Part shown: one piece after another, positions 2 to 34,167 of the stretch
Layout: every line of letters starts with the position of its first letter
Position numbering within the stretch: the stretch's first letter is position 1
Virus record (IMG/VR): IMGVR_UViG_3300026138_000005
Span: 1 to 48,076 of that record
Reading direction: 5' to 3' (one strand)
Source of the DNA: a virus
Taxonomy: Duplodnaviria > Caudoviricetes
DNA: 48,076 nucleotides
Made by a program: the position numbers and the translations under genes
The notes under the pieces: generated by a model
What the model was told of the DNA's origin: nothing
The model's database searches: none
The model's input: only the letters and a program-made list of their open reading frames with translations

Positions 2-1354
2 AATTACGAGCCTAATGCAATAAATGACAAGGTCGTTTTTTATGAAACATTAATTACTAACCTTTTAATTCATGGCAATGGCTTTGCAATTATTGAAAGG
101 GATAGAAATACTTATAATGTTGATTCCTTAAGGTTGCTGCATCCTGATATCGTTACGGTTAAGGTTTTAAAAAATGGCAACATCCGTTATGAAATAAATC
201 AGCTTGGAGGTACAAAGAAATTTTATAGACCTGATGAAATAATCCATTTACAAGGTTCGACTACTAATGGGTTTTTAGGCTTTAGTACTATTGATTTAAA
301 TAGGTCTATTTTTGAATTGGCTTTGCATACCATTAATTTTGGAAAGGCGTATTATCAAAATGGTGGTTTTTTAAGTGGTGTAATTATGCACCCATCTAGC
401 TTGTCTGATTCAGCACATAAAAGGTTAAAAAATAGCCTTAGTCGTTATTCGGGTAGTGGCAAAGCTGGTAAGCAGTTAATCTTGGATGAAGGTATGAGTT
501 ATGAAACTTTGACCATTAGTCCAGCACAGGCGGGATTTGTTGAAGTTAATAATTATTTGATCGGTGAATTTAGCCGTATTTTTGGAGTTCCTCCATTCCT
601 ATTGCAAGACTTATCAAAGTCCACGATGCAAAATGTTGAGAGTTTAAACCTTGCATTCGTTAAGCATACTGTCATAGAACATTTAAACAAGCTAGAAAGT
701 GAGTTTAGTAGGAAGCTGCTAACTGAAGCCGACAAAATGGCTGGTTATTGTATTAAGCTAAATTTAGACGATTTATTAAAAGCTGATAGCAAAACAAGAG
801 GCGAATATTTAAGAAACTTATTTAATATTGGAGCGGTAAATATTGATGAAATCAGAATGATGGAAGGGCTTGTTCCACTTAATACAGATGGAAGTAAAAA
901 GCACTTCGTTCAAGTCAATATGGGTAATATTGAGGATGATTATTTAGGGCAGAAAAACTCTAATGAAGAAAGAAATTTACAATCAAAAAAGGGATGCGAT
1001 TGTTTGGGTTATGTTGATGACTCTGATTATTATGATGTACCACAAGAACGAAATGCTAAAACTTACAATGATTACCCTGAGTCAGTTGTTAATAATGCTA
1101 AAAGAGGTATAAAATTAAATGAGGAGGTTAACAACAAATGTGCTACTCAAGTAGGAAAAATAAGGGCTAGGCAATTAGCAAACAAAGAGCCTTTGAGTAT
1201 GGATACAATAAAAAGAATGTATTCTTATTTAAGTAGGGCTGAAGAATATTATAACCCAAGCGATACGAAAGCTTGTGGAACGATCTCGTATTTACTATGG
1301 GGCGGTAAATCTGCAAAAACTTGGGCAGCATCAAAAATAAAAGATAATGAATAA
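2..1354 (+). CDS. HK97-family phage portal protein (5'-truncated) with extra C-terminal domain
   Basis: Frame of ORF 134..1354 is open back to base 2 (NYEPNAINDKVVFYETLITNLLIHGNGFAIIERD). HK97 portal motifs: EIIHL, NGFLGFS, YYQNGGFLSGVI, GKQLILDEGMSY, SRIFGVPPFLL, NIDEIRMMEGL. Confidence 0.95.
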   Translation, partial: NYEPNAINDKVVFYETLITNLLIHGNGFAIIERDRNTYNVDSLRLLHPDIVTVKVLKNGNIRYEINQLGGTKKFYRPDEIIHLQGSTTNGFLGFSTIDLNRSIFELALHTINFGKAYYQNGGFLSGVIMHPSSLSDSAHKRLKNSLSRYSGSGKAGKQLILDEGMSYETLTISPAQAGFVEVNNYLIGEFSRIFGVPPFLLQDLSKSTMQNVESLNLAFVKHTVIEHLNKLESEFSRKLLTEADKMAGYCIKLNLDDLLKADSKTRGEYLRNLFNIGAVNIDEIRMMEGLVPLNTDGSKKHFVQVNMGNIEDDYLGQKNSNEERNLQSKKGCDCLGYVDDSDYYDVPQERNAKTYNDYPESVVNNAKRGIKLNEEVNNKCATQVGKIRARQLANKEPLSMDTIKRMYSYLSRAEEYYNPSDTKACGTISYLLWGGKSAKTWAASKIKDNE

Positions 1355-1931
1355 TAAACAATTTTTTCCAAGCGTAGAACTTAGAGCATATATGTCTGAA
1401 GATGAAGACAAAATGCTTTTAGAAGGATATGCAATAGTTTTCAATAGTGAATCAAGGGATTTAGGCGGTTTTACTGAAGTAGTTAAAGAAAACGCTTTAG
1501 ACAACGCATTAAATAGAAATAGTGATGTATTGGCTTTGTATGGTCATGACTATGCTAATGTATTAGGCAGACAATCGGCTGGTACTTTAAAACTTGACAA
1601 AGACGAAAAAGGTATTAAGTTTATGCTTGATTTACCTAATACGCAACTAGGTCGAGATGTTTATACACTTGTTGAACGGGGCGATCTTAGGGGCAATTCT
1701 TTTGGTTTTACTGTCGAAAAGGATTCCTGGGATAAAGTAGGTGACAAGGTAATACGGACTATTGAGCAAGTTAAGGACTTGTTTGAGATTAGTATTGTAA
1801 GCCTACCCGCTTATGAAGCTACGGAATTAGTTAAAAGAAGTTATGAGGATTTTACTACTGAGCCAGAGGTTGAAGAACCTTGTGAAAAAGAGGCTTTAGT
1901 ATATCCTCAATCTATTTTGAAACATCTTTAA
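1347..1931 (+). CDS. HK97-family prohead maturation protease
   Basis: LEGYAIVFNSESRDLGGFTE, ALYGHD..VLGR, GNSFGF, LFEISIVSLPAYEAT; lies between portal and capsid. Confidence 0.95.
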   Translation: MNNKQFFPSVELRAYMSEDEDKMLLEGYAIVFNSESRDLGGFTEVVKENALDNALNRNSDVLALYGHDYANVLGRQSAGTLKLDKDEKGIKFMLDLPNTQLGRDVYTLVERGDLRGNSFGFTVEKDSWDKVGDKVIRTIEQVKDLFEISIVSLPAYEATELVKRSYEDFTTEPEVEEPCEKEALVYPQSILKHL

Positions 1932-1954
1932 TATTAAAGTAAATATTTTTTTTT

Positions 1955-3115
1955 ATGAAACTTAAAAACTTGAAAGAGCAAGAAGCAGCAATCAAAGCTG
2001 AACTTACTGCTTTGTCTAACATTGAGGATCGTGCTTTGAATGCTGAGGAAGCTGCAAAGTCACAGGAATTAATCGCAGAGTTGAACAATGTAGCACAGTC
2101 TATTGAAGTTCAAGAAAGAATTGCAAACTTCACTGAGGAAGTTGCAGATGTTGAAATTACTCCAGCTATTGAGGTAAACCAAATGGAAGCATTTGAAGCA
2201 TACCTTAGAAATGGTAATAAAGGACTAAACGCTGAAACTCGTGCAAACCTTGTATCTGCTTCAGATGCTAATGGTGGCTACATTGTTCCAGATGAATTCC
2301 GTCAAGAACTATATGAAGCATTAAAGTACTACTCAAATGTAATTGATGTAGCTACTTTGGTTTCTACTTCTCATGGTAGAAATATTGATATGCCAACAGT
2401 TGACGAAACTGCGGTTCTTGCTGGTTGGGGTACTGAATCAGCTTTGGTTTCTGCTACTGACATGACATTTGGTTCTGTACAAGTAGGGGCTAATATGCTT
2501 AGAACTATGGTTCTACTATCTATTGAGTTAATCCAAGATAATGATGTGAACTTGACTGGGCAGATTGCTCGTTTGTTTGCTGATCGTTTTGGTCGTGCTT
2601 TAGAAGAAGCATTCACAAATGGTAACGGAACATCACCTAACCCAACAGGATTCATGAACGGAATCACTACGGGTGTTACTGCGGCTTCTGCTACTGCTTT
2701 CACTCGTGAAGAACTAGTAGGGCTTATCCACTCAGTAGATAAAGCATACAGAGCTAATCCATCTTTCCGTATTGTTATGAATGATGCTACATTGGCAGAA
2801 GTTCGTAAACTTGCATTTGGAACTGGCGATGATCGTCCACTATATCAAGAGGGTAATGCAACAACTGGAGAACCTACAAGAATTGAAGGTGTGCCAGTAA
2901 TGATCAACAACGCTATGCCTGATATTGCAACAGGTACTAAGCCGATTGCGGTTGCTGATTTCTCTAAGTTTATCATCCGTCAGGCTGGTTCTTACAACTT
3001 CCGTAGATTAGATGAGCGTTATGCTGATAATTTACAAGTTGCTTTCTTAGGATATGCAAGATTTGATTCTAAAGTTATTGATGCGGCTGCTTTCCGTTGT
3101 TTAACGATGGCTTAA
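1955..3115 (+). CDS. HK97-fold major capsid protein with N-terminal coiled-coil delta domain
   Basis: Coiled-coil N-terminus, AFEAYLR, GGYIVP, SIELIQD, FTNGNGT..PTG, IEGVPV, ADFSKFII, FLGYARFD. Confidence 0.96.
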   Translation: MKLKNLKEQEAAIKAELTALSNIEDRALNAEEAAKSQELIAELNNVAQSIEVQERIANFTEEVADVEITPAIEVNQMEAFEAYLRNGNKGLNAETRANLVSASDANGGYIVPDEFRQELYEALKYYSNVIDVATLVSTSHGRNIDMPTVDETAVLAGWGTESALVSATDMTFGSVQVGANMLRTMVLLSIELIQDNDVNLTGQIARLFADRFGRALEEAFTNGNGTSPNPTGFMNGITTGVTAASATAFTREELVGLIHSVDKAYRANPSFRIVMNDATLAEVRKLAFGTGDDRPLYQEGNATTGEPTRIEGVPVMINNAMPDIATGTKPIAVADFSKFIIRQAGSYNFRRLDERYADNLQVAFLGYARFDSKVIDAAAFRCLTMA

Positions 3116-3150
3116 TTAATAGCATAGTTTTTAATATAAATTAGAGGGGG

Positions 3151-3183
3151 GGGTTGCTGCTGCGATAGTGGCAGCCCTTTTTT
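3151..3183 (+). terminator. Rho-independent terminator after major capsid gene
   Basis: GGGTTGCTGCT-gcgat-AGTGGCAGCCC 11-bp stem (with G-U pairs) followed by TTTTTT. Confidence 0.8.
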
Positions 3184-3198
3184 AAAACCATTATAAAG

Positions 3199-3456: not shown

Positions 3457-3459
3457 GAT

Positions 3460-3978
3460 ATGTTACGCAAATTAAGTTCTAAAGATTTAACCAGTTTGGA
3501 TGTCGTTAAGGATCACCTAAAGGTAGATTATACTGAGGAGGATTCTTTGATAAATGGCTACATTGAAACTGCCCATAATTTTGTTGAGGATTACACCAAT
3601 ATAGCTATTGGAGTTCAAAACTTTGAGGAGCATTTAACTGCTGATATTACTGAGGAATATGTGTTTTTAAGTATGAACCCATTGGTAAGTATTACTAGCG
3701 TTGTTGCTATTGATGAAGTTGACGGAACTGAAGAAGATGTAACTGCGGATATTATAAATATTACCAATGCATTAGGTACAAGGTTAAAAACCGATAAAAA
3801 GAAGTCTTACAAGGTTACTTATAGTGCTGGGGTTGCATTGGCGGACATACCTAAACAGATGCATCAAGCTATTCTTTTAAGTGTGAGTGATATGTTTGAA
3901 AATAGGGTGGAAAAGGTTAAACAAAAAAGAACAAGCGTAGAATATTTATTAAACCAAGTAAGCATTAAAAGAATATGA
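3460..3978 (+). CDS. head-tail connector (HK97 gp6 / SPP1 gp15-like)
   Basis: SLDVVKDHLKVDYTEEDSLINGYIETA..FVEDYT, VTYSAG, IPKQMHQAILLSVSDMFENR. Confidence 0.9.
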   Translation: MLRKLSSKDLTSLDVVKDHLKVDYTEEDSLINGYIETAHNFVEDYTNIAIGVQNFEEHLTADITEEYVFLSMNPLVSITSVVAIDEVDGTEEDVTADIINITNALGTRLKTDKKKSYKVTYSAGVALADIPKQMHQAILLSVSDMFENRVEKVKQKRTSVEYLLNQVSIKRI

Positions 3979-4322
3979 TTGGCAAGTTAGATAGTCGTAT
4001 TGAATTTTTGCAAAAAAGCATAGTGAGAGATGCTATTGGGGGGGAAACTGTAACTTATGTTACTTTAAAATCTACTTGGGCGTATGTTATTAAACCAACA
4101 GGCGAAGATAAAAATAAGGAGTTGAGCGGGAGGCAAGTCCCTGTAAATGAATTAGATTTTGTTATTAGGTATTTTATTGGTTTGACTGAAGATATGATCA
4201 TAAAGTATAATGGGGTTTTAGGTGAGAGGTTTTACAAGATAGTAAGCATAAATGAGGAGTTTGAAGAAAGAAGAAATGGGTATATAAGGATAACTGGACA
4301 AAAATTTGACTTAGAGAAATAA
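3975..4322 (+). CDS. head closure / head-tail adaptor (SPP1 gp16 / HK97 gp7-like)
   Basis: IGKLDSRIEF...RDAIGGE...WAYV...FVIRY...DMII.Y...YKIVSI; follows the gp6-like gene with ATGA overlap. Confidence 0.88.
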   Translation: MIGKLDSRIEFLQKSIVRDAIGGETVTYVTLKSTWAYVIKPTGEDKNKELSGRQVPVNELDFVIRYFIGLTEDMIIKYNGVLGERFYKIVSINEEFEERRNGYIRITGQKFDLEK

Positions 4323-4332
4323 AAAATAGAAT

Positions 4333-7300
4333 ATGGGTATATTTAGCGGTGGTTCTTTTCCTACATCTGGGGGAACTGTTATAATAACACAAGATGGATA
4401 TCAAACGCTTAATTTAACTGGAAATATTCTCACCATAAGTGGAAGCAATAGTTCCGTTGACCTTAGTAGTTATTTAGATGATACAAATACCACTAACACA
4501 TCTTTGACATTAAATGCTTCTAATGTATTAACCTTGACGGATTCAGACAGTGGGACTGTCACTGTTGATTTAACATCATTGGTGACTGCTGCTGGTGGTA
4601 CAGCAGAATCAACACATATACCAGTTAAAAATACATCAGGTGCTACAATAACAAAAGGAACTCCTGTTTATATTACTGGCAATGTTGGTTCAAGTAATAG
4701 GCTACAGATTGCCCCTGCTGATGCTTCTGATCCTGCAAAAATGCCTGCTATTGGATTGCTAGAAACAGACTTGATAAACAATGCTGAAGGCTATGTGGTT
4801 CAAGGTGGGTATCTTACAAATATCACAACCGATATAATAGATGGCACATCAACATCATCTAATGATACAGTTTATGTAAAAGTTGGTGGAGGTATTACAA
4901 TGACCAAACCAACAGGATCAACAAATTATATTCAGAATATAGCAAAGGTTGCAAGGGTAGGTTCGGGCAGTAGTGGTTCATTGATTGTTTCATCAATATT
5001 AAGGACAAATGATATACCTAACTTAGCTGATGGTCAAGTATGGGTGGGATCAACAACATACCCAGTAAGCACAGATTTTAATTTGCAAGAGGTTACTGAT
5101 GGGGGGAATACGACTACTAATGATATAACAATTGGTGGAGGTGGTACAACTGCAACAGATGCAGTATTAATATTAGATGGTGGAAATGCTAGTGGAGGAG
5201 AAGCTTATATATCATTACAAAGAAATAGCGTAGGAGGTTTTCTATTAAACCATAGTGATAGTAGCATACAAGTAAGAGGAACTACCGACTTGCCGATGTA
5301 TTTTTACACTAATAATTCAATAAAACAAACTATTTTATCCAATGGCAATATTGGCATCGGGACTACGAGTCCGAGTGAGAAACTTGAAGTTGCTGGAAAT
5401 ATTCTTCTTACTACTAACACAGGTGCATCAAGAACGCTATATACAGGTGGGGATACAAATTTACATATACAAACAAACACAGGGGATGTAAAGATTTTAT
5501 CTTCAAATGGTGGTAATAATCTTATGACTTTGTTAAATGGTGGCAACATAGGCATAAACGAATCTTCTCCCGATGCGAAACTTCACATAGTTGGTTCAGG
5601 TAATACTTCGGGAACTACTGCTTTGTTGGTTGAGAATAGTCTAAGCTCAGACTTGGTTAAGGTTTTGGATAACGGCAATGTTTCAATAGGTGGACAAACT
5701 GCAACTCAAAAACTAAACTTATCAGGAAATTTTTTAATAGGTAATAATAACGAAATAAGATGGAAGGATAGTGGAGGCACTGAAAGAACTGCAATAGAGT
5801 TAGATAGTTCTAATGATTTCAATTTAGGTACTTCGGCAAGTGGTGCATTGAGGTTTATAGGTGGTGGAAGTTATACAGAAAGGATGCGAGTACACACCAA
5901 TGGCAACATAGGCATAGGCACTACGAGTCCGAGTAGGTTACTTGATGTAAATGGAATACAGGGTTGGTCATTAAGTGACAATGAAGTAGCTTATTTAAAT
6001 CCTACCGCAACTGGAACAGATTTTGCACTTAAAAATGCAGCTGGAACTAATGTAATAAGATTTGATGGCAGACCTAATAACAATTCTTGGATTAATAACG
6101 GAGGTTCATTTGGTATTGGAACTTCGAGTCCGAGTGCGTTTTTAGAAATAGCTAACCCAACTTATTCAAATGCAACAGTATTGTTAGGTAGGCAATCAGG
6201 TTATCCAACAATTCAAGGTAATGGAACATCAGGTGGTCAATGGTTAATGTTAGATAGTAACGGAGGATATTTAGCATTGAATAACCACGTAACGGATAAT
6301 GTTATACTTGCTTGGGGAGGAGGAGATGTAGCAGTAGGTACTGGTAGTCCTCTTGCTAGATTTCACGTTAAAGGTTCAGGCAATACATCGGCTACTACTG
6401 CATTATTAGTAGAAAATAGCAGTGGAACGGATACTTTTAAAGTATTAAATGATGGTCAAGCACAATTAGGTAGCTATGGTAGTGGTACATTTACAGGTAC
6501 AGTTTCTAAAATATTAGCAGTAGAAAGTGGTGGTAATATCATAGAAACTACTTTAAGTGATTTGAGTGGTGTAGACGGATCAGGTACTGCCAACTATTTG
6601 CCTAAATGGTCTGACTCAGACACACTAACAGATAGTTTAGCTTATGATGATGGAGGTGGTCAGTTTGTATTTGAAGGAAGCTTTTTTACTGGTCAAAGTG
6701 TAGCAACAGATTCCACAAATAAATCTATAAGGCTTGCCACTAAGCACTATACAAATGCTGAAGAACCTTTTGTAGGTTTATTGGCTACAAGTACAAGTAC
6801 TGCAAATATAGTTGAAATTGGTGGTGGTACTACATTGGGCAATGCTGCGACCACAGTTTCTTTTAGAACAGCATCAAACAATACAACTGTCACTGGTACA
6901 GAGAGAATGCGTATCACTTCCACAGGAGCGGTTGGCATTGGGACTTCGAGTCCAAGTTATAAGTTTACTGCTTATGGTAGTTCTTCTAATAGCGAAATAG
7001 TTGCTTCTTTTGGTAGTGCAAATAATCAAAATGATTATACCGCTATTGGTTTAAGTGGGTTTATTGCAAGTAATGGAGCAACAAAAGCAGGTTTAGCTTT
7101 AGAAAGAACAGCTACTTATGGAACTGGAAAACTCCACTTCTTAAATAATAGTACTTTAGATAACTCAGATATGACTTTGAGTGATTCTAAAATGGTTATC
7201 TTAGGTGGTGGCAACGTAGGAATTGGAACTTCGAGTCCGAGTGCTAAGCTTCACATCCAAAACGCAGCAGCATCTAATTATGCACTAAGATTTAATTATG

Positions 7301-8232: not shown

Positions 8233-9118
8233 TAAATGGCAAATAAGGCATTAAACATAAAGGATAGGTTAGCGGTTAGAGGTGCTATTGTTGAACCAAG
8301 CTCAATGATAGGAGGTAATTATTTATTCTCCTTGCAGCCACATATTGAAGGAGGTGATTTAGACGGTGCTTTAAATTTAACATCTGGAGCTAGGGGTAGC
8401 TACACTATTGAAACAATAGATGATCCAGATGCTCCTTATGGTAAAGTTGTTAAATTCCCTACAGGTCAACAAAGTTTTGTTGCAGCTTACGATATTGATA
8501 TTCCAGTAGACGCTGGAGATAGAGTTTATATAGAAGCTACTTATATGATCCCTGCAACAGACACAGGGACACAAAGTAATTTTTATTTAGGTGTTAACGG
8601 ATTGGACAAAGATAAGAAACTGATAAATTCTAACTTTGGTCTAATAACATATCCTGTTAGTAACATAACATTAACAGCAGATGGTAATTGGTATACTGTA
8701 GGTGGTTACGCTACAATTCCTTCTTCTCACACTCCTTATAATGGCTCTGATGGTGGAGCTGTTAGGTATATTAAAAATTATGTTCTTGTAAATTATGGAG
8801 CAGGAGATAGAGAAGTTTACCTTTCTAATGTTGTAGTCCGTAAAGTAGAGGCTTTTAAGGATAATGCAGATATTTATTTTAGAGGAAACGTGGGCATTAG
8901 CACTTCGAGTCCTGCTTCTAAATTAGATATTAACATAGCACTTGCATCAAGTGATGGTATTACTATTGATACTAATGATGAAGTTTACAGTATTTGGTCA
9001 AATTCTAATTTAGGGGGGTTAGCTATTAATGCTAATACTGTGGGAAATGCCACAAGATACGATTTATTTATAAAACACTCTAATGGCAATATAGGTATAG
9101 GCACGTCGAGTCCGAGTG
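5362..9118 (+). repeat. dispersed in-frame direct repeat, core CGAGTCCGAGTG (9 copies)
   Basis: Cores start at 5366, 5924, 6125, 6947, 7232, 7448, 7745, 8906, 9107. The copies at 5366, 6125, 7232 and 9107 are exact 12/12; the others have 1-4 mismatches. Confidence 0.9.
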
Positions 9119-12110: not shown

Positions 12111-12112
12111 TT

Positions 12113-20507: not shown

Positions 20508-20512
20508 GACTA

Positions 20513-22003: not shown

Positions 22004-22023
22004 ATATTTAAACCATATACATA

Positions 22024-25000: not shown

Positions 25001-28000
25001 ACTTAGAAGTTACACGAAAAGAAGACGGCACTTACACTATGGTGGCTGACGACGAGCTTAACGTGAACGCTAAACCTTTTGTGTACGTAGCACTTTCTAA
25101 GATAGCTGAGAATATGAATAAGAATGGCGTTACTGATACAGGTAGCGTCAAGGTAGTTATAGAGGGAGTAGACCAAGCAACAATTGACAACGAACTTAAT
25201 AATATTAGCGATGCACTTTCTGAAGTATTTGGAGAAGGTGGATTTACTATAAGCAATGTAAAAGAAAACTCAACCACACGAGAGACGCAAGGTGGACAAG
25301 AGTTTACGATATCTATTGATGGTGGCTTTAATGCTCAAAACGTGCAGGATAAATTATCTACTGTAATAGAATTTAAAGAACAGTTTAAAGAAGAAACAGG
25401 ACAGGATAATATTCAAGAAGGAGAAACCTTAGAAGAGTACGGTAAAAGACGAACGAAGGAAGCAGAGATGCAGTACTTAACAGAGGAAGAAGCAGAGGAA
25501 AAGGCTTGGGGATTTTGGATGCTTGAAGGAGCAGACCGATGGATGTCTAATATGAATCCAGATGATGCATTAGATCAATGGCGGAATAGAGTGGCTGCTA
25601 AAGATGGTATTATAGACGAAACGATGTCTGATGAGCAGATACTAGATTCGCTAGAAACACTATTTAATAATCTATTAGATGCATATACTAAAAAAGAGAA
25701 TCTATCTAGAGCAATGGGGAAGGGTGTTTTTGCTGAGTTAGTTGCAATAGACAGAAAAAAGTTAGAAGATAATAAAGAGACACTCAAAGAAAGATACTTA
25801 AAAACAATAAAAGCAGCTGTTGAGACTCAAAGGGAGTCTGGCGGTAAGTTTGTTTTCTTGTTAACAAAAGAAGCTCAGGATGACTATGTTAACTTTTGGT
25901 TTGGAGGAGATCCAAGTGGACATAATTCTTATGGGCACTTTGCACCGCAAAGGAATGCTATAGTTATTTATGGGGATAAGTTACTAGAGCAAATTCAAAA
26001 TGCAACAGAGGCTTACGAATTAAGTCCTTTAGAGTTCCCTATTAAGCTCAAAGAAGTTTTAGCTCACGAGCTATTCCACTCAATGCTAGATAAAGCTTAT
26101 AAGGCTATTATGGCAAAGACTGGGATGGATAAGATAAAGATAAGGTCTGAGCTTGTTACTCAGATTGTAGAGATGTTTGATAAGGGTAAGCTTAAATTTA
26201 GAAGCGAGATTGACCAAATTAGATTTGCGAAATTTATAAGTGCATATAGAGAAGAGGGGGCGAATGTTATGTACGAAGAGATACTCGTAGAGATTGTTCC
26301 TCAAATTATGCAGGGTAAGATATTTTTTGACCCAACGGTAGAGTACGGAGGATTAAAGAAGCTTTTGCAGACTATATTAGATGTAGTTAATGACTTGTTC
26401 AATACAGACTTTAATATAAAAGATTTAGGTATCGATGAGCTTGATCAAAGGACTGTAGAGGCAGAGGCTTTCTTAACTATTCTTTCAAGTGTGTACACTC
26501 CAGATGAAAAAGGTCTTAGCGCCACAGCTTTAAATGGGGCACTAGTTAGATTATTGACTAATGTTGAGGCTGTAGCAATGGCTAAGATGGAGAAGAAAGG
26601 ATTTACGAGCGAGGCTGATTATCAAAATATGATTGCTCGTTCTGTGTTATCAGAGGATAGCCCATTACTCAGCTCAGGTATTATAGATAGAGACCCTGCA
26701 TCTAGAGGGACTATTGTTGATCCATTAGGTCAAGTGTTACTTCGTATTGATGACAACGAAACATCTAATGCAGTATCGCCTTTAGATTTTAATGAACCTA
26801 GTAGCGTTAATCAGCATTTATCTAACCATATTATGGATGCATTGCGTACAGGTGCTATTAAATTTAAGAACAAGAATGTAGCTGAGAGTTTTACTAGATG
26901 GATGGGAGCTTATCCTGTTTTGAGTAGGTCGGAAGAGATGGTTACTGAGGTGTACTCTATGATACAGTCAGGTGATTTATCAATAGACACGTACAGAATG
27001 ACAAGTCCTCTAAAGAATATGCTGAAGGGATTTGTTCGTTTTGCTTCTGATATATCTGGCACTCCAATTAAATTAGACTTTAATAATCCAGCAGCCGTAG
27101 CTGAGGCTTTTGCTGCTTTGACAGAGATGGGGGTTACTGGGTCTCCGTCAGGATTGCTTGCAGATAGATTGTCTTCGGCTAAGATAGAGGGCAGTCCTAT
27201 TGATGGAGTATTATTCCAAAAGCAAGTTAAGAAGACTGGATTTGTAGCTGCTGAAGGAGCAGAGGGTGCAGCACTTAGAAAGTATGCGCTAATTAAAGGT
27301 CTACCTACCTACGAAGGCAAGAGGCACATTGCAGTAGAGATGACTCAAGAGCAAGCGATGACAGCTATGGCTGACTTAGGTATCGCAGGTATACACACAG
27401 ACAAAGGTATTCTTACATTAGATGGCAAGATATATCCTAAAGGTAAGGGAGGTGATATTATTTCTATTAACTTTGGTAAGAACACAGTTAGACTAGAGTA
27501 TTCTAAGGATCCTGTGAAGTCTGGAGTTAAGGTGGACGCTAAGCCTTATAGTCCTCGTATTGCTAGAGAGGCTGTTCAAGCTATTCCGGAATTGAAGAGC
27601 GATACAGAGAAGAAGCGTCTTAACAAGATTGCTGCTAAGCTTATGTCACTAGGGTACGTAGATGCTGCAAAGTCCATACTAGTAGTAGCTGAAGCAACAA
27701 GACATTTAAAGAGGAATAACATACAAACAAGAATAGTATTTGACAAAGCAAGAAAGCTAAGAAAAGATCTTGCAGGCACTACGTTAGATATAAACCTTAA
27801 AGAAGGGAACCCTGTTAAGGTAGCCACTGATATGGCTTCTTTAATATTTAGTAACAAAACCCAAAAGTTTAAGGATGAAGTATACGGAGCAATTAAACTT
27901 GCTATTACTGGCGATAAGGATGGCAACGCAATTAAAGTATTAATAGACATACTATCTGGTACAACTGAACTTACAGACAAACAACAACAACAATTAGCAA

Positions 28001-31000
28001 AAAAGATCATTAGTACCAAGAATAGATTGCTTAAATCTTTAGACGTTCCGTTACAGATTGATGAGTCTGCTGTTATAATAAACTCTATTAGAGAGGATAT
28101 ATTTAGAGAGGCAGCTTTAGAGCTTATGTCTTATGGGAACCAAGAGTTCGATGATATGGTTGAACTGGGTTTACCTGTCGGTATGCTTAATACAGATAAG
28201 TATACTAAGGTTAGAGACTTAGACTATAACAAACCTAGAACAATCAACCCTAATATGTTAGCTCAGCGTGCAGAGCAAATGGAAATGTCTTACGGTTTAC
28301 CTAAGGGTAGTATACAGATTCCTATGTTCGATCACACTACGCTTGATGACGATACCCCAATGCTTACAGTTCCTCACGACAGGCAGTTTACTGGTAAAGT
28401 GACTACGCCAATTGGCGACTTTGACTTCTCTGGCGGTGGATTAGGTATGTTTCACCCAGACAGGGTAAAGGCAGGAGTGGTATATATGTCAGAAAATAGT
28501 AAGGTGCAGGGTATGGTAGCTCAGGCTATACGGCTAGCTAAGTTCATACAAGAGAGAGATGGGTTGCCGGAACCGCCTAATAATGTGGTCGTTGCAGCTG
28601 TTATGGGTAAAGATAACTGGCAGTCAAACAGAGACACAGCAGGCTTCGTTACTTCAATGGCAGAGCAGCAGTTCGGCAGCACTATGGATTCGCCTATACC
28701 TCAGGCATTTAAGGACGCTATACTTAATCCTGAATTAATTAAGTACACAAAAGATGGTGTTACTAAATTATCTAAAGCCGGTAGGTTAATCACGGAGATA
28801 ATGGCAGAGTCTAAGACAATGAGAGACTTCTTTACTAAGGTAGAGCAACGATCTTTTAATGACAGGAAAGACATAGCCAGTAGATACTTCTTGCAGAAAA
28901 ACTTAGACAATGAATTTGCTACAGGTAAAGGATCTAAATACAAAAGGTTCTTAGCTAAAGTAGGTAGTGCATTAATGGGTCTTAGTGTTGAGCCTGCTTG
29001 GAACATTGTTCCAGACAAGCACATCTTTATGATGTTCGAAATGGATATTGCGAAGACAGCTAAAATGATAGAGCAGGAATCGGCTATGAATCACAGGTCT
29101 TATAGCACCGACGTTTATGGAAAGCAGTTGGGTATTCTAAGTCAAACTGTATTTTATCCTCAGGCTGTATCATTCCCTTCAGATTTATTGGAAGCTACTA
29201 AGCCTAAGGAAGACTCAGATATGACTAAGATTATTGAGGCTTATTCAGAGTCCGTAGCAAAAGTAGAGGCTGGGGAAGCTACTGCAAAAGACTACGAGAA
29301 TATTACTCGTATGGGTCGTGAAGGAGGTCAGTCAGCATTCTTTACTGCCGGCAAAGAAATACCAGCGCCTGCTGATAGTGAGTCAGCTGAAAGGACTATC
29401 GCTACAAACGTAGAGGCAGATCCTACAGCAGGTGTTAGGTTTATGAAGGAAGAGGATAAAGAAGCTGAACCAACGGTTGAGGGTGTATCTCCTGAGACCA
29501 CTCCTGTTAGGGCAACTCCTAAAGAAGGAGCTAAGGCAGCAGGTGACAGGCTTGCACGAGATGCTAAAAGGAAGAGAAAGGTTAAGAAGCTACAGGAGTT
29601 AGTTGCGAGTGCAAAGGAACAAGCAATTGCTGACTTATCTACTAAAAGCAGAGAAATAGCTGTAACATTAACTAATGAAGAAATAGATGCTCTTGTAAGT
29701 ATATTAGAAGGAGATGATGGGTACGCTATTACAGCGTTCATTATTACAAGTGACAGGCAAGCAAGAGACCAACAGGGTATGATGTTCAAGGCGGATACTA
29801 TTATAGCTGAAACTCTTGCACAGAAATTAGACATATCTATTAACAGCGCTAAGGCGCTAGTAGAAGCTGTTACCGGAAGGCAGTTTGTATCTCCGGAATC
29901 TTCTACAGAAGCTAGAAGAAGAGAAGATTACACTCAAGTAGTTGTAAACTCTATAAAATTCTATATGGCTACAAATAAACTAGGGGTTGGCTTTATTAAT
30001 TCAGCACTTAGAGCGTTAGGATATAATACAGGCATAGAGGGTATAGACACTATGGTTGGTGACTCTGGTGCTTTGATGCACAGGCAAATAAAGAACTTTG
30101 CAGCTGCAAAAAGACAGAGCTTACAAACCAGAATAAAGGAGTTAGAAAGAAGGATGGCTATCTTAGAAAGAGAAGGAGGCACAGACTTGGCAGCTATGGA
30201 AAGCTTAGGTAGCAGGATATCCACAGCACAGGTGCAGCTTGAAAACTTACAGCAAATCATTGATGACGTTGATGGATACCACGCACTAGATAAAGCTAAA
30301 TCTGTTGCTGCTTATACTAGGTCTCAAATGAGGCAGTGGTTGTACGAAGGCGGTAAGAAGTCATTCTTAGCTAGAGTTAACCAACACTTCACGTATGACG
30401 AGTTCAATGAGATTTTGTTGGCTATGCACACAAAAGAAAGGACTGTAAGAAACGAGCAGATACTTAGAGAATCTATTGGTTTAGCACAAATAGAAAGACT
30501 TGAACTTACAAACGAGAAAGAAAACATAGAAGCAAATATTAGTAAAGCAGAAGAAGCAGGCGTAGATACTGTTGCCTTAAACAAGACTCTTGTAACTACA
30601 GAGCGCCAGCTAAAAGAAAACGAAGAAAAGTTAAAAGAACTTAAGAAAAAGCTGAACGAGAATATAGTGCACGCTGAAGATGTACTGATCCCTCAGTCGG
30701 AAGCTATCTTAAAAAAGTTTGAAGCTAAAAGCGACGAAGCTAAGACAGCGTTTAGAGAGCTTGCAGCAGAGATGAAAGAGAACCTTATCACTAAGCGTAT
30801 AGAAATGCTTTACGATAATGGTATGATTACATCTGAGCAGAAAGAAGCTTTAATGAATGGGTCTCGTAAGAGTATAGACCAAATCAACAGAGAGGGTAAA
30901 GACAGAGAACTTAGAGAGCAGCTTGACAGGGGTAATATTACCTACGATGAGTACTTAGAAAAGCAAAGTAAGCTAGACGAATCTTCTATTGAGTTCGAAG

Positions 31001-34000
31001 CTCAAAGAGAATTAACACAAAAGATTGATGAACTAGAGCAAAGATACAGACAAGACGAGGTAACTAGAAGAGAACTGGATAGAGCATTAGCCAACGGAAC
31101 TATAGATGCTGCTACTCACGAAAGACAGACAGCTTCTTTACTTACCAAACAGCAGTACGAGACTCAGTTAGAATTCTTTTTAGATGCTAAGGAGAATACT
31201 GTATTTAAGTACGATTCTTTTGAGAACTATGTTCCTATGCAGATAGATGAAGATGCATATGTAAACAATGTATTAGAAGAAGCTTATAATAAATATCTAA
31301 AAGAAAAAGGTATTAACGGTAAGTCTTACAAAGAAGTTAACGCTACTATAGGCTCTATGTTTGACACGTTTACTAACGAGCTTACTCAGGGCGATGATAG
31401 TAGTGCAGCCTTTGAACACCTTAGTGATGTTGTATCTAAGAGTCTTGAGCTTAGCAAAACGGAAGAGGGTTACAGAGCAAGACAGAAAAGAATAGGAGAT
31501 GTTAGGAGACAGATAATGGGGGCGATGAAAAGGGAAAAGAGAAAGTCTACTAAGACTGGAACCGGAACTACAATCAATGCAATCAGGGGTAACGCTAGGT
31601 TTGGTCTTTATGAGATGGTGAATCCATTAGAAGTACTGGGAGCCCAGTTTGATTTAGCAGCAAAGATCGCTGCTAGAAACGAGGCTAAGCAGAAACTTGT
31701 GAATCTAATAGAAGAAACCAATGCTATGCTAATGGAGGAAGCTATGGTTGCACACAACAATGGCGTAGTTAAGATTGGTAAAATTGTACCTACGTGGAGA
31801 CTAAGACAGGCTACCGCTAAAAATATGGTAGAGGCAGCTATCGAAGACAAACAACTACCAAAAGACGTTGCAACGTCCGAACAATTCACAATGAATGTAT
31901 ATCTAGACGGACAGTTGCATACTATAGTATTTGAACAATCAGAAGCTGGAGACCAGACTGGAGTAAGAGCAATGGCTAGAGCTATGTTACAGGATGAGGC
32001 TAGTGACTTCCAATCTCTTAATGGCGGAATGCTGCACAGGTTATACAGAAGCGTAATGAACTACTTGAGGGCTGCAATTACTACAGCTAACATATTCTTT
32101 AATGCGAGTAACTTAATGAGGGATACAACGGAATCTCTAATGAATATCTCGTACATCTACGATACATACCAAGAGTCAGGTAAATCTAAGGGTGCTATTG
32201 CAAAAGAGGTGGCTGCTGATATGGCTGAGATGATGAAGCTTCAAACACTTATGTTTGCTTCATATGTTAAGATAAATAAATTTGGCTTAAACGCAGCGGA
32301 AGCAGTCAATATTACTATACCTAATCCAAATGGTGGGACTATGGAAGTGTCGCTGCACGAGTTGATTGATATGGCTAAGAATGCTGGAGCACAAATGAGT
32401 TGGTCTTTAGTTAACACAGACTTATTAGGTGATGGAGTTCAAGCTATACAAGAGGCTATCCGAGAAGAGGTTAGCCGACAGAAGGAAGCTTCTACATTTA
32501 GTGGACGTATGTTGCAGCGTGCTAAACTTATTGGTGGGTTACCGATAGACTTGATCAAACTTAACAATCCTAGAAAATACTCTGTGCCTTATTATCTTTC
32601 TCAAATGGCTGATGCACTAGAGAATCACAATAGGATGGCTGCATTTATGTTAGCGCTAAAGCGTGGTTTAACAGTAGACCAAGCAGCAGCAGCAGCAAGA
32701 AACGTTACTGTAAACTTTGAAAAGACAGGTACGTTACTCAAGAGTGCTAAACTTCCAAACCAATCAGGTGTTGAAACTACTGCTAAGGCAACTCTTCAGT
32801 TAGTACAGGGGGCTTACTTATTTATTCGCCCTGCCGTACAGGGTGGACGTAAGTTTATACAGAGATGGAATACGGAAAAGGGAAGAACAAGCTTAGCGTT
32901 TAGCGGACTATTAAGTGTAATGTCCAATGTATTTACTGTCTTTATGAATTACGATGAGGATGAGACAGAGTTGAAAAACATTTATAGGAATAAGTGGGCA
33001 GTAGAAAATTACTTCTACGTTCCTTTGACTAAAGGTGCAGGGCTTCAGATACCTAAACCATACTCTCCGGATAAGGTGTTGTCTACTATGATAACAAGAT
33101 CTTTTGGAGCCAAATACACAGGTCACTCAATGGGTGACATCCTTTGGGATGGAGTTAGTCAAAGTGCTACGTTACTACTTCCTTTAGATGTAACAAGAGC
33201 AGGGGAAGGTATGTTTGACCCTACTATTTTACAGCCATTTATGGAGTTATCTAGGAATAGAACTTACACCGGAAGAAGACCGCTGAGAGATCCAGAGGAT
33301 GGAATAAATTCTGTTAGCAATGAAATGTATCTTAAGACAAAGTTCTTAGGTATGGAGTTCGACAAGAACATATGGAGAGAACTTGCTAGACTTTCTCGTA
33401 AGGTGTACACTCCAGAGACAGCATCATTTGGAGATAAGCTATTATCACCACAGGGTATACAGCACGTGATGGGTGAATACTTCTTTAATAAAGGTGTGCT
33501 TAAGCCAGTAGAGCAAGTTAGGAAATCTTTCAGTGAAGTAGAAGCCGAAAAGTTTAGACAAGATAATGAACTTACAGAGGGTCAGATTCGGCTGATACAG
33601 ATCGGTAACGCTCTTAAGTACATAAAGTTCGATGACGGCAAAGTAGGTATGGCTAAAAACTTCTTTAACGCTACCAAGCATCCAGTAAAGAAAGGAAACT
33701 TTGAATCTAAGGTTGCTGCGTTGCAGAGTATTGAAGATTCTTTTTTAGCTGCAAAAGAGATTGGTAAAATAGATAACAAAACAGCAGAAAGGATATACAA
33801 GCAAAGACTTACTTCTTGGTATATAGAGAACAGCGGTCTGGAAGGGATCACGGAGGGATTATTTAAAGAGGTTGCACCTAAGGCGTACAGGTTTATGAGT
33901 AAAGACTTAACAGAAAAACAAGTACAAAGAATTTTAGACGAAGATTTCTTTAGAAGTGGTAAGGCTATTGAAAAATTAATAGCTAGTGGATTGTTTGATA

Positions 34001-34167
34001 AACTTGATAGAGAGACGCAAAGGGAAATGATAAGAGAAGCTAAGAGAAAGGAGAAAGAACTAACTAGAATGGTTAAAGATTTAGAGAGATCTGATGAATT
34101 AAGATACAGAGAAATGGAAAACATAGGCAACAATGCTTGGTGGGAATCCTTCTTTGGGAAAGATTAG
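22024..34167 (+). CDS. giant (4047 aa) polyvalent internal virion protein with zincin HExxH motif and LPD38-like C-terminal region
   Basis: VLAHELFH (HELFH at 26065-26079) with downstream EE; coiled coils; FFNASNLMRD...ENHNRMAAF...ARNVTVNFEKTG...YLFIRPAVQG...IPKPY...QPFMELSRNRTYTGR. Confidence 0.8.
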   Translation: MNPKLKELVSRLNAAQAFGDTELTEEQFLNIFSDEVKKEELLKRLNTAKAFGSEDLGIKEFNSTFFSSPSPEFVAPKAEAELEVSDRETRGYSTDLPDVQTESTVPELDPSLLTGTTDATADVDLSEIQGGTNIDRFILDNKDELFRNVSEYEGTEKYEVDRGSDAYQALYKQVKDYVQKKPVSARDTGVIFDPIEFRNDPNRYQENQIQAEMARFLEANAPEDIGLRDLQEQKFQETSEVVGLELDVTRKRLNELINEFENTPMTNAEADLKLQEIRALEDDLKEAGKEYLETTGIGETMEAFATVEPEEMESASKYLRGHQLAGGAAISKVLIDAFVKNQPKEPAIAELSANFAANAENVINGDEAQSKEAIDNIVAQFKANPYVREDETYVDRLSSVVAEMKLGRYAKTEAGNVLADMYVDAFRKNVEPKTKAAKIGYGITTIPYSIIDDVVEIAPELLTVAGTVMTQDDNRIQDAKQAVADAYESDNPTDIANAMQNFYDVESNVANEFLKTSGYLFDIDAAKGGVGDITKYKLDRSTAAKIKAQNRSLTDNTWKGIGDAYDAGEISKTEMIVGKAGVAISNAFQSSPSMVQAMIPYVGIASMATSAGADKYFEGLGNLDADYKNLLVGSAAVAVAEGFSGHIERYIGGKAWRTMTTAAKKKTVSELIKNSKDFFELSNSAYRKAVLKETGKDLGELLFDSSAEGFSEMLVTLTSNVVDRDVLGMDKDLFADMGETFATGFAMGAGAGSITAYGNIKESIKNPYEMSAEFREVYNAARVVQQRAKSSPIINKIRGRDTKETSLGNDVQGLQGKIEAIVLMTGASVSQATDALRATMPNVKTDTQLETDLSKAAEDTKQSISERLQEADARTRMSFAFNEMRDGNVHEAIEVLAAEEVAQEGRADETMEAPKVMERRAETADTAAMSSITGDSNQTGTVTTTLQSVSINGKEEDDVTTISTDAKEETSDIQFRDGEKQMSVSAVSSEIVNLEVTRKEDGTYTMVADDELNVNAKPFVYVALSKIAENMNKNGVTDTGSVKVVIEGVDQATIDNELNNISDALSEVFGEGGFTISNVKENSTTRETQGGQEFTISIDGGFNAQNVQDKLSTVIEFKEQFKEETGQDNIQEGETLEEYGKRRTKEAEMQYLTEEEAEEKAWGFWMLEGADRWMSNMNPDDALDQWRNRVAAKDGIIDETMSDEQILDSLETLFNNLLDAYTKKENLSRAMGKGVFAELVAIDRKKLEDNKETLKERYLKTIKAAVETQRESGGKFVFLLTKEAQDDYVNFWFGGDPSGHNSYGHFAPQRNAIVIYGDKLLEQIQNATEAYELSPLEFPIKLKEVLAHELFHSMLDKAYKAIMAKTGMDKIKIRSELVTQIVEMFDKGKLKFRSEIDQIRFAKFISAYREEGANVMYEEILVEIVPQIMQGKIFFDPTVEYGGLKKLLQTILDVVNDLFNTDFNIKDLGIDELDQRTVEAEAFLTILSSVYTPDEKGLSATALNGALVRLLTNVEAVAMAKMEKKGFTSEADYQNMIARSVLSEDSPLLSSGIIDRDPASRGTIVDPLGQVLLRIDDNETSNAVSPLDFNEPSSVNQHLSNHIMDALRTGAIKFKNKNVAESFTRWMGAYPVLSRSEEMVTEVYSMIQSGDLSIDTYRMTSPLKNMLKGFVRFASDISGTPIKLDFNNPAAVAEAFAALTEMGVTGSPSGLLADRLSSAKIEGSPIDGVLFQKQVKKTGFVAAEGAEGAALRKYALIKGLPTYEGKRHIAVEMTQEQAMTAMADLGIAGIHTDKGILTLDGKIYPKGKGGDIISINFGKNTVRLEYSKDPVKSGVKVDAKPYSPRIAREAVQAIPELKSDTEKKRLNKIAAKLMSLGYVDAAKSILVVAEATRHLKRNNIQTRIVFDKARKLRKDLAGTTLDINLKEGNPVKVATDMASLIFSNKTQKFKDEVYGAIKLAITGDKDGNAIKVLIDILSGTTELTDKQQQQLAKKIISTKNRLLKSLDVPLQIDESAVIINSIREDIFREAALELMSYGNQEFDDMVELGLPVGMLNTDKYTKVRDLDYNKPRTINPNMLAQRAEQMEMSYGLPKGSIQIPMFDHTTLDDDTPMLTVPHDRQFTGKVTTPIGDFDFSGGGLGMFHPDRVKAGVVYMSENSKVQGMVAQAIRLAKFIQERDGLPEPPNNVVVAAVMGKDNWQSNRDTAGFVTSMAEQQFGSTMDSPIPQAFKDAILNPELIKYTKDGVTKLSKAGRLITEIMAESKTMRDFFTKVEQRSFNDRKDIASRYFLQKNLDNEFATGKGSKYKRFLAKVGSALMGLSVEPAWNIVPDKHIFMMFEMDIAKTAKMIEQESAMNHRSYSTDVYGKQLGILSQTVFYPQAVSFPSDLLEATKPKEDSDMTKIIEAYSESVAKVEAGEATAKDYENITRMGREGGQSAFFTAGKEIPAPADSESAERTIATNVEADPTAGVRFMKEEDKEAEPTVEGVSPETTPVRATPKEGAKAAGDRLARDAKRKRKVKKLQELVASAKEQAIADLSTKSREIAVTLTNEEIDALVSILEGDDGYAITAFIITSDRQARDQQGMMFKADTIIAETLAQKLDISINSAKALVEAVTGRQFVSPESSTEARRREDYTQVVVNSIKFYMATNKLGVGFINSALRALGYNTGIEGIDTMVGDSGALMHRQIKNFAAAKRQSLQTRIKELERRMAILEREGGTDLAAMESLGSRISTAQVQLENLQQIIDDVDGYHALDKAKSVAAYTRSQMRQWLYEGGKKSFLARVNQHFTYDEFNEILLAMHTKERTVRNEQILRESIGLAQIERLELTNEKENIEANISKAEEAGVDTVALNKTLVTTERQLKENEEKLKELKKKLNENIVHAEDVLIPQSEAILKKFEAKSDEAKTAFRELAAEMKENLITKRIEMLYDNGMITSEQKEALMNGSRKSIDQINREGKDRELREQLDRGNITYDEYLEKQSKLDESSIEFEAQRELTQKIDELEQRYRQDEVTRRELDRALANGTIDAATHERQTASLLTKQQYETQLEFFLDAKENTVFKYDSFENYVPMQIDEDAYVNNVLEEAYNKYLKEKGINGKSYKEVNATIGSMFDTFTNELTQGDDSSAAFEHLSDVVSKSLELSKTEEGYRARQKRIGDVRRQIMGAMKREKRKSTKTGTGTTINAIRGNARFGLYEMVNPLEVLGAQFDLAAKIAARNEAKQKLVNLIEETNAMLMEEAMVAHNNGVVKIGKIVPTWRLRQATAKNMVEAAIEDKQLPKDVATSEQFTMNVYLDGQLHTIVFEQSEAGDQTGVRAMARAMLQDEASDFQSLNGGMLHRLYRSVMNYLRAAITTANIFFNASNLMRDTTESLMNISYIYDTYQESGKSKGAIAKEVAADMAEMMKLQTLMFASYVKINKFGLNAAEAVNITIPNPNGGTMEVSLHELIDMAKNAGAQMSWSLVNTDLLGDGVQAIQEAIREEVSRQKEASTFSGRMLQRAKLIGGLPIDLIKLNNPRKYSVPYYLSQMADALENHNRMAAFMLALKRGLTVDQAAAAARNVTVNFEKTGTLLKSAKLPNQSGVETTAKATLQLVQGAYLFIRPAVQGGRKFIQRWNTEKGRTSLAFSGLLSVMSNVFTVFMNYDEDETELKNIYRNKWAVENYFYVPLTKGAGLQIPKPYSPDKVLSTMITRSFGAKYTGHSMGDILWDGVSQSATLLLPLDVTRAGEGMFDPTILQPFMELSRNRTYTGRRPLRDPEDGINSVSNEMYLKTKFLGMEFDKNIWRELARLSRKVYTPETASFGDKLLSPQGIQHVMGEYFFNKGVLKPVEQVRKSFSEVEAEKFRQDNELTEGQIRLIQIGNALKYIKFDDGKVGMAKNFFNATKHPVKKGNFESKVAALQSIEDSFLAAKEIGKIDNKTAERIYKQRLTSWYIENSGLEGITEGLFKEVAPKAYRFMSKDLTEKQVQRILDEDFFRSGKAIEKLIASGLFDKLDRETQREMIREAKRKEKELTRMVKDLERSDELRYREMENIGNNAWWESFFGKD

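Follow-up and report, generated by a model that had tools for sequence, protein, structure and literature searches.

A virus record that joins an HK97-type head to a crAss-like ring and muzzle tail most likely arose by chimeric assembly from two co-occurring phages

Introduction

The closest described counterparts of the tail considered here are found in the Cellulophaga phages phi38:1 and Calle (Callevirus, Pervagoviridae) and, among the Crassvirales, in crAss001. Portal, chaperonin cpn10 and structural proteins are listed as core proteins of the Pervagoviridae in Table 2 of PMC8776804, and PMC10172136 describes a crAss001 virion in which the portal clip touches the ring barrel directly and cargo protein C1 binds the portal wing. 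The head considered here resembles that of the HK97-like siphovirus module, which is defined by the families PF04860, PF04586, PF05065, PF05135, PF05521, PF04883, PF11367 and PF06199 and a tape measure. Two other precedents bear on a contig that contains both. Regions conserved across species, together with repeats, cause fragmentation and misassembly (PMC6350398), and the finding that a podovirus depolymerase is 42% identical to a siphovirus one has been treated as a sign of transfer across morphotypes (PMC8262889).

Here, we analyze a window of 48,076 nucleotides, the whole of IMG/VR record IMGVR_UViG_3300026138_000005, to which all coordinates below refer. Pfam and PHROG searches bear out the gene order given in the initial annotation: portal, protease, capsid, gp6 and gp7, then fibres, then rings, muzzle and cargo-like genes. 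That annotation put forward an undescribed hybrid virion or a recent head-module replacement and, as a third reading, a chimeric assembly joined at the repetitive fibre genes. It is the third that we find supported, and with high confidence: the record appears to combine an HK97-type siphovirus on the left with a ring/muzzle podovirus, phi38:1-like and about 69 kb in size, in the remainder, likely joined in a near-identical fibre segment. The apparent long-tail/short-tail hybrid is most likely an assembly artefact.

The Siphovirus Half and its Conventional Partners

Five genes are assigned to the siphovirus part:
2..1354, + strand, HK97-type portal, open at the 5′ end (PF04860, E 2.8e-70)
1347..1931, + strand, prohead protease (PF04586, E 1.1e-50)
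1955..3115, + strand, HK97-family major capsid protein, 386 aa (PF05065, E 2e-60)
3460..3978, + strand, gp6-like head-tail adaptor (PF05135; phrog_40, Ad1)
3975..4322, + strand, gp7-like head closure protein (PF05521; phrog_25, Hc1)

The complete portal, 541 aa in an ORF of contig L004, carries an extra C-terminal domain of about 100 aa (phrog_2859, E 7.5e-9). The nearest isolate capsids are only 35% identical to the capsid of the window, for whose exact sequence the largest contig listed is 48,076 bp, and the gp6-like protein is 100% identical in L002, L003 and L004.

As the initial annotation noted, no gp10, terminator, tube or tape-measure family was matched in the window when its 44 ORFs were scanned with Pfam and PHROG. 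The gp10, tail-completion, tube and tape-measure genes that are missing there are found in two other contigs. L002, a single contig 96.8% identical to window positions 1-5127, runs on into its own fibre, after which it encodes HK97-gp10 (PF04883), tail completion protein gp17 (PF11367) and tail tube (PF06199), all above the Pfam cut-off. L007, with a tail of the same type (95% nucleotide identity), also has chaperone-like genes and a tape measure (PF20155); where it overlaps the end of head contig L003, the two are identical over 72 bases. Window positions 2-4322 and the tails of L002 and L007 thus contain all families of the HK97-like module, from which this siphovirus differs in the portal extension and in having a fibre gene and a 107-aa gene between gp7 and gp10. 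It is because these two genes precede gp10 that a join near gp7 looks like a neck attached to a foreign tail.

The head had been judged more AT-rich by eye, and measurement agrees: GC is 35.4% in the head genes versus 39.4% in the ring and cargo-like genes, and GC3 is 0.259 versus 0.326. The GC3 of the head is close to that of the L007 siphovirus tail (0.264). Codon usage still differs between head and L007 tail (chi2 70.7, df 40), less than between the head and four similar-sized segments of the ring and cargo-like genes (chi2 98-125). The reported lack of a late-promoter motif before the head says little, as the sole repeated upstream motif found (two copies, 19749-19796 and 34205-34252) is also missing before the rings and fibres.

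The Podovirus Half

The following are assigned to the podovirus part:
8236..10983, + strand, fibre 2, 915 aa (phrog_9942)
11010..11336, + strand, 108-aa fibre-adjacent gene (a 69,258-bp contig is listed for the identical sequence)
13742..15941, + strand, three ring-like tail-barrel genes of 248, 226 and 257 aa (PHROG, position)
15941..19744, + strand, muzzle-like protein, 1267 aa (PF25729, E 4e-9, above the cut-off; phrog_14478, E 3e-31)
19827..34167, + strand, three cargo-like genes of 226, 496 and 4047 aa (position after the muzzle, size)

The three ring-like genes, muzzle and three cargo-like genes described earlier at 13742-34167 are confirmed, the middle ring by position and similarity and the cargo-like genes by position and size. 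The first ring gene (13742-14488; phrog_14543, E 1.5e-4) and the third (15168-15941; phrog_13977, E 4e-8) match the families of phi38:1 gp95 and gp96, with 26% identity to gp95. The middle gene (14488-15168) matches no family and is considered ring-like from its position and its 24-27% identity to the counterpart in L005 and L006; PHROG thus matches two of the three ring proteins of the window and Pfam none. In a Foldseek search with a model of ring 3, itself of low confidence (pLDDT 59.6), the two best matches were crAss001 chains (E 2e-4 and 6e-4), with a TM of only 0.24-0.25. The best isolate matches of the muzzle are Cellulophaga phages phi38:1, phi40:1 and Calle and the Flavobacterium elemo phages, at 23-25% identity; its profile matched no PDB chain. 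An ejection role is predicted for the cargo-like genes from their place after the muzzle; their order is the same in phi38:1 gp99-101 and in L005, where the first two are also similar in size. The 4047-aa protein contains LPD38 at residues 3657-3820. It has no PDB match, no match to the crAss RNA-polymerase family and no DxDxD motif, although a divergent enzyme could escape such searches.

This half shares with phi38:1 and Calle the order of rings, muzzle and three large genes, the PHROG families of two rings, the muzzle and the probable native capsid, and a similar genome size (72.5 kb versus about 69 kb for the podovirus of the window). It differs in that protein identity is only 23-26%, in that the largest cargo-like protein has 4047 aa versus about 1690 aa, and in that the window has no tRNAs and does have an integrase-like gene. 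As for the Pervagoviridae core, it is structural families that are shared at this level of identity; the portal of the podovirus and any cpn10 would lie outside the window. With crAss001 it has in common ring-like genes, a C-terminal domain of the muzzle and cargo-like genes after the muzzle, whereas the 4047-aa protein lacks the polymerase signatures and the probable native capsid belongs to SU10/phi38:1 families (PF17236, phrog_13704). The tail is crAss-like in its working, which does not in itself establish membership of the crassviruses.

The Likely Capsid of the Podovirus

Profile searches found neither a crAss-type portal and capsid nor a phi38:1-type portal and capsid in the record, as the initial annotation had said of a second portal or capsid; such empty answers are weak alone. 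The phi38:1-type portal profile (phrog_6547) did match in 18 of 28 other muzzle-bearing viral records, including all six that are at least 90% complete. No HK97 capsid (PF05065) or HK97-type portal (PF04860) occurs in any of the 28, so that none of them links such a capsid to a muzzle.

The capsid that belongs with the ring module is likely a 442-aa SU10/phi38:1-type protein, whose cluster (PF17236, phrog_13704) is the family of phi38:1 gp93. The exact fibre 2 sequence occurs on six contigs and the exact 4047-aa protein on five, the largest in both cases being 69,258 bp. The same size is listed for the exact ring, muzzle and cargo-like proteins and for the 442-aa capsid. Eight of 15 listed members of the capsid cluster lie on contigs sized like ring/muzzle contigs, 69,258 bp among them (15 of 30 members were compared, by the largest contig per sequence, and 10 of 150 capsid representatives). 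As controls, nine other capsid clusters gave no match among 24 sizes, and the clusters of the HK97 capsid, gp6 and gp7 gave none among 15; 69,258 bp is listed for none of all 21 members of the latter. The link between capsid and rings is a matter of equal-sized contigs, not one read from DNA. A HMMER search with cluster comparison recovered the 442-aa capsid, which had been missed by a word-index search with the G001 capsid (31 matches, none on a ring/muzzle-sized contig). Ring 3 alone found no match among viral contigs, a set that may leave out near-identical records, and neither a ring alignment nor the muzzle found any among genome contigs.

Each half thus has conventional partners, the left in L002 and L007 and the right in P0139, P0391 and the muzzle-bearing records, the capsid being linked through equal-sized contigs.

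The Probable Junction Within Fibre 1

Three features are found around the junction:
4333..8232, + strand, fibre 1, 1299 aa (phrog_9942), likely chimeric, with a siphovirus-type N-terminus and a podovirus-type remainder
4597..4824, + strand, beginning of the fibre domain for which the two phages have homologues; the window has the siphovirus path
4825..5345, + strand, node shared between the two genomes, with two entering paths and roughly summed depth

The exact fibre 1 sequence is on one contig only. Its N-terminal 88 aa are common to P0024, P0026, P0027 and P0028, and P0024 is identical up to residue 345. Residues 263-1299 are 99.5% identical to P0139, whose 251-aa N-terminus differs. Among nine fibres with the P0139 N-terminus, seven end in the C-terminal type of the window and the other two look truncated; none of the four other fibres with the N-terminus of the window does so. 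The right half was also assembled independently as L010 (50,540 bp), which begins exactly at position 4825; over 19,661 bases compared it has three mismatches to the window (5106, 5109 and 5115), at which the window has the letters of L002. From these data the crossover would lie at about 5116-5367, its right-hand limit falling at about 5346-5368, which places the junction inside fibre 1. The shared fibre block includes 281 bases merged into one node in run X3, and L019, from a third phage, has six mismatches to the window over 5076-5600. Two exact DNA patterns around the junction found no match in viral contigs, a set that may leave out near-identical records. The reading frame is open across the junction, as would be expected of a real recombinant too.

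A junction at the 108-aa gene (11005-11336), a homologue of which follows the siphovirus fibre, was considered and rejected. In X3 the copy of the window is continuous with fibre 2 and the rings (contigs 9909-11050 and 11021-20000+ overlap, with 0 differences to the window), and a further ground is that its nucleotide identity to the siphovirus copy is only about 80%.

Assembly Graph and Depth Across Runs

The 21 runs listed are represented by Logan contigs rather than raw reads; X1 and X2 may be the record's own sample and are not counted as independent. That no contig spans the junction was rejected as evidence, since Logan contigs are cut wherever the graph branches and leave out rare variants. 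In all three runs of the likely source type (X1, X2 and X3), a node of roughly summed depth begins at 4825, and two contigs that lead into it end at 4854: entering depths of 9.5 and 10.3 precede a node of 17.1 in X1, 21.1 and 16 precede 33.4 in X2, and 10.1 and 9.3 precede 20.8 in X3. The two entering paths have 32 differences over 4597-4854. The second entering contig (5,126, 17,828 and 5,595 bases in X1, X2 and X3, respectively) is unlike the window before 4597, and the loose end of this path in X1, X3 and X5 encodes the last residues of the N-terminal part of P0139. Branch points of the graph lie at 4825 and at 5105-5345, with roughly twofold depth from one to the other; in X5 there are too many strains for a single node to be seen.

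Pairing by exit depth is less uniform. X5 favours two phages, and X1 and X3 favour neither pairing clearly, the exits listed for X3 (8.9 and 4.3) falling short of 20.8 in sum. X2 counts against two phages, pairing in the way of the window, with 21.1 (HK97) and 16 entering and 21.7 (window path) and 16.1 leaving; this pairing does not reach the rings, because the exit piece has 285 bases and its stretch is also present in siphovirus-type P0024 and in L019.

In per-contig depth, the head and the ring module are about equal in X3 (7-10 versus 9.5) and in X4. Their depths are 76 versus 198 in X5 (ratio about 0.4) and 47-54 versus 13-15 in X7 (about 3.6), a swing of about nine-fold. The two halves hence change in depth independently between runs, as far as assembled contigs show, which bears on the comparison of coverage that had been suggested as a check.

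Proposed Course of Events and Alternatives

In a sample with both phages at similar depth, the assembler would have come into the shared fibre stretch along the siphovirus path and gone on along that of the podovirus at about 5116-5367, so that the contig lacks the terminase, portal, capsid and fibre N-terminus native to the podovirus and has those of the siphovirus path in their place. Both virions would be built ordinarily, one with portal, gp6, gp7, terminator, tube and tape measure, the other with a large portal, rings, muzzle and cargo. The case resembles interspecies chimeric contigs in its join within a conserved, host-interaction region of two co-occurring genomes, with graph branches at both ends, summed depth and similar abundance. 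It differs in that the shared segment is a recently exchanged fibre cassette, not an IS element or rRNA, and in that the frame stays open, which gives the product the look of a single coherent genome.

A recombinant that is real, yet rare or a dead end, is improbable, though a little less so than a viable one. It would have formed on co-infection by homologous recombination in the shared fibre segment, with a siphovirus left arm and a podovirus right arm, have been assembled in this one sample and make no working hybrid virion. The two phages do have several hundred near-identical bases in common, are found together in the same runs and evidently swap fibre blocks, the frame is intact, and X2 pairs HK97 with the exit of the window. 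Nevertheless, the combination is on one contig only, both parental entering paths have similar depth in X1-X3, a condition favouring crossover by the assembler, and the separate assembly L010 breaks at 4825. Assemblers seldom choose a rare molecule over two abundant ones.

The chimeric assembly is still more strongly preferred to a viable lineage in which, after head-module replacement, a ring/muzzle tail is attached through the gp6/gp7 neck to an HK97 head, from which the giant cargo is ejected: the contig is continuous, without frame break or duplicated module, X2 depths pair suitably and the modeled ring 3 resembles adaptor-type folds, which would make docking conceivable, but this reading is already largely refuted by the nine-fold swing in depth, the absence of HK97 capsid or portal from the 28 muzzle records and the 69,258-bp contig size, shared with the 442-aa SU10-type capsid and not with HK97 clusters. 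Contacts like those in crAss001, where the portal clip meets the ring barrel directly, would moreover leave gp6 and gp7 no place in a ring/muzzle virion, and an HK97 portal would presumably not supply them. We accordingly hold it very unlikely that a real recombinant phage, formed via the shared fibre cassette, combines this head and neck with the crAss-like tail and its 4047-aa ejection protein; were it real, a long-tail neck and a crAss-type ejection tail would be mechanically compatible.

Implications

The fibre cassette is near-identical in the siphovirus, the ring/muzzle podovirus and a third phage, which suggests a very recent exchange across tail types and that the three probably have a common host. 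As in the depolymerase case of PMC8262889, a tail-fibre module would have moved across morphotypes, with the difference that the block here is near-identical in DNA. This exchange is the modest by-product of the analysis. The hybrid virion does not stand, and the main value of the case is as a warning: a catalogued record rated 80% complete by CheckV likely couples the wrong head with a tail, and would mislead marker-based taxonomy and surveys of module swapping.

Gene content of the window

At 48,076 bases, the window covers an entire linear virus record, whose completeness is rated at 80%. The gene order described in the initial annotation is borne out by domain and family matches: the first six of 44 scanned ORFs include HK97-type portal, protease, capsid, gp6 and gp7 genes. 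Behind these lie two fibre genes and a set of small basic proteins, then two holin-like and three ring-like genes, and after those a muzzle (PF25729) with three cargo-like genes behind it. As also claimed, the gp10, terminator, tube and tape-measure families are unmatched among these 44 ORFs, a phi38:1-type portal or capsid is found nowhere in the record, and the head has the higher AT content (GC3 0.259, against 0.326). The remark that the head lacks a late-promoter motif is a weak point, because the sole repeated motif has just two copies. Ring identity is moderately supported by family matches and modelling: two of the three ring-like genes match PHROG families to which phi38:1 gp95 and gp96 belong, and crAss001 chains rank first in structure comparison with a low-confidence predicted model of ring 3. 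The cargo label is putative, by position after the muzzle.

Features of the window
1049–1354: additional C-terminal domain of the portal
3975–4322: gp7
4333–8232: fibre 1
4603–5640: fibre cassette
8236–10983: fibre 2
11010–11336: 108-aa gene after the fibres
11736–12934: small, very basic proteins
12946–13656: two holin-like genes
13742–15941: three ring-like genes
15941–19744: muzzle
19827–34167: cargo-like genes, including the 4047-aa protein (22024–34167)
35289–35951 (-): 220-aa endolysin-like gene
44428–45525 (-): integrase-like gene

The siphovirus that probably owns the head

A search with gp6 retrieved three viral contigs, L002, L003 and L004. With 0 mismatches over 5,736 bases, L002 and L004 represent a single strain, to which window 1–5127 is 96.8% identical. 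An HK97-like terminase lies upstream of the head genes in L004, and the single contig L002 runs on from the head into a 1202-aa fibre of its own, followed by a 107-aa gene, gp10, a tail completion protein and the tail tube. L003 (98.9% identical) ends at window 5122 and overlaps by 72 identical bases with L007. On L007 are a tube and chaperone-like genes as well as a tape measure of 872 aa, and its tail agrees in GC3 (0.264) with the window head. The window head is part of an ordinary siphovirus. Because gp7 and gp10 flank the fibre gene of this siphovirus, a cross-over inside the fibre would hide the entire long tail.

The additional domain of the HK97-type portal (~100 aa; phrog_2859, E 7.5e-9) is also present in the 541-aa portal of L004. 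The large siphovirus fibre (L002 4751–8359; L007 3–3356; P0024, P0026, P0027 and P0028) is encoded within the neck block and is possibly a fibre of the collar or head; its first ~262 residues are nearly constant, and the middle and C-terminus vary among strains.

The podovirus that probably owns the rings, muzzle and putative cargo

A search with ring 1 found three metagenome contigs, the window's own record among them. L010, an independent 50,540-bp assembly of the right half, begins at window 4825 and differs over the 19,661 bases compared only at 5106, 5109 and 5115, where the window carries the letters of siphovirus L002. The exact sequence of fibre 1 occurs in one contig. Its single cluster partner, P0139, agrees with it at 99.5% over residues 263–1299 but begins with a different N-terminus of 251 aa. 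Among the fibres retrieved (best 120 of 219 matches plus cluster members), the window-type C-terminus is found in seven of nine with the P0139 N-terminus, the remaining two looking truncated, and in none of the four others with the window's N-terminus. For fibre 2, ring 1, ring 3, the muzzle and the 108-aa and 4047-aa proteins, each as an exact sequence, the longest contig listed is 69,258 bases; for the exact capsid, gp6 and gp7 it is 48,076 bases, and none of the capsid, gp6 and gp7 cluster members (21/21 read) is listed on a contig of 69,258 bases. Among 28 muzzle-bearing viral records, which are distant relatives (21–30%), an HK97 capsid or portal occurs in none and a phi38:1-type portal in 18; all six muzzle-bearing records at least 90% complete have the latter. 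The window tail is part of an ordinary ring/muzzle podovirus, and its best isolate matches suggest a Bacteroidota host. One part would function in the manner of an HK97-type siphovirus, the other in that of a phi38:1-like podovirus with a crAss-like tail. Two membership tests went against Crassvirales for the podovirus part, and Pervagoviridae is a candidate family for it.

What, then, is the podovirus's own capsid? G001, a complete but distant relative (73,882 bp), combines the ring module with a terminase, portal and capsid that are all of phi38:1 type, and lacks PF05065. A HMMER search with this capsid gave 334 matches, 10 of the best 150 being looked up. One matching cluster (442 aa long and 43% identical, with PF17236 and phrog_13704) has members listed on contigs of 69,258, 34,080, 32,662, 37,318, 56,017, 35,509, 75,689 and 29,482 bases. 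Eight of the 15 sizes listed for it (30 members) recur among the 44 sizes of ring and muzzle relatives, against 0/24 for the other nine capsid clusters and 0/15 for HK97 clusters as controls. Fibres with the P0139 N-terminus share five of eight contig sizes with the ring set and none with the HK97 set. From this linkage via equal-sized contigs we infer that the 442-aa capsid is native to the podovirus. By arithmetic, the 17,828-base contig entering the junction in sequencing run X2 and L010 make about 68.3 kb, near 69,258.

Near the C-terminus of the 4047-aa protein lies LPD38, and a single HExxH motif occurs at residue 1348; an RNA-polymerase motif and a PDB match were both looked for in this protein and not found. 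The small basic proteins (three ORFs with 31–36% K+R and some shorter ones) are likely DNA-binding core proteins; an 83-nt repeat lies among the short ORFs, at 12664 and 12852, and similar genes stand upstream of the fibres of L019, a third phage. A 48-nt AT-rich repeat, its copies 77% alike, directly follows the muzzle gene (19749–19796) and the giant gene (34205–34252), and is possibly a promoter or terminator-promoter unit. At the end of the leftward-reading arm, well away from the holin-like genes, stands the endolysin-like gene (phrog_33083, E 3e-16). The integrase-like gene (phrog_1, E 4e-5) lies in the podovirus replication arm and has a counterpart-sized ORF in G001; since two of the 28 muzzle-bearing records are also classed as proviruses, some of the group may be temperate.

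The probable junction in fibre 1

In each of runs X1, X2 and X3, two assembled contigs stop at 4854. One is the HK97 path, with a depth of 9.5, 21.1 and 10.1, respectively, and the other a second path (10.3, 16 and 9.3). A node beginning at 4825 has depths of 17.1, 33.4 and 20.8, contig depths being a coarse measure; X1 and X2 are possibly the source sample of the window. The second path is homologous to the window from 4597, with 32 differences, and unlike it before; its loose end in X1, X3 and X5 matches the end of P0139's N-terminal part. X5 gives depths of 83 for the window alleles at 4779–5037 and 76 for the head, against 232 for the other alleles there, 200 at 5116–5363 and 198 for the rings. 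X7 is reversed (head 47–54, ring module 13–15). A single genome does not account for this roughly nine-fold swing.

Up to residue 345 the window's fibre 1 is matched exactly by P0024, a fibre of siphovirus type, and almost exactly as far as 436; a parent that could have carried the head path to about 5345–5367 therefore exists. In the window the letters are those of the siphovirus through 5115 and the residues those of the podovirus from 346, so the probable cross-over falls at about 5116–5367; here, within fibre 1, the siphovirus path would run into the podovirus path. Interspecies common regions are a described cause of misassembly (PMC6350398). Of the readings initially offered, the chimeric assembly is by far the most likely and agrees with the branching at the junction and with the conventional partners of each half; the hybrid virion is in all likelihood an artefact.

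Two readings in which the join is real keep a small probability because, among other points, the reading frame stays open across it and, in X2, the depths at 5345 link entries to exits as the window joins them (21.1 to 21.7, 16 to 16.1). The X2 exit piece is only 285 bases, in the cassette also carried by P0024 and L019, and therefore falls short of the rings; the depths of the exits listed in X3 do not add up to that of the node. A rare recombinant molecule, with a siphovirus head side and a podovirus side, is on this evidence very improbable. Slightly less probable still is a viable hybrid phage. In crAss001, rings dock on the clip of the portal and cargo is bound to its wing (PMC10172136); an HK97 portal with gp6/gp7 would likely lack these contacts.

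Probable fibre exchange between tail types

The 107–108-aa gene (phrog_18037) follows the fibre cluster in both phages (L002 8396–8719; L007 3393–3716; about 80% nt) and is possibly a fibre chaperone or cap travelling with fibres.

The fibre cassette is common to P0024, several podovirus strains (P0232 and P0021 among the fibres named) and L019, and its location within the fibre protein differs among podovirus strains. L019, one contig with its own phi38:1-type terminase and portal, matches window 4603–5640 at 92% (L019 10055–11092), with 6 mismatches over 5076–5600. Such similarity suggests a very recent block exchange of the cassette across tail types. Exchange of fibres or RBPs across morphotypes is described (PMC8262889), and fibre exchange of this kind is what remains real once the hybrid reading falls.
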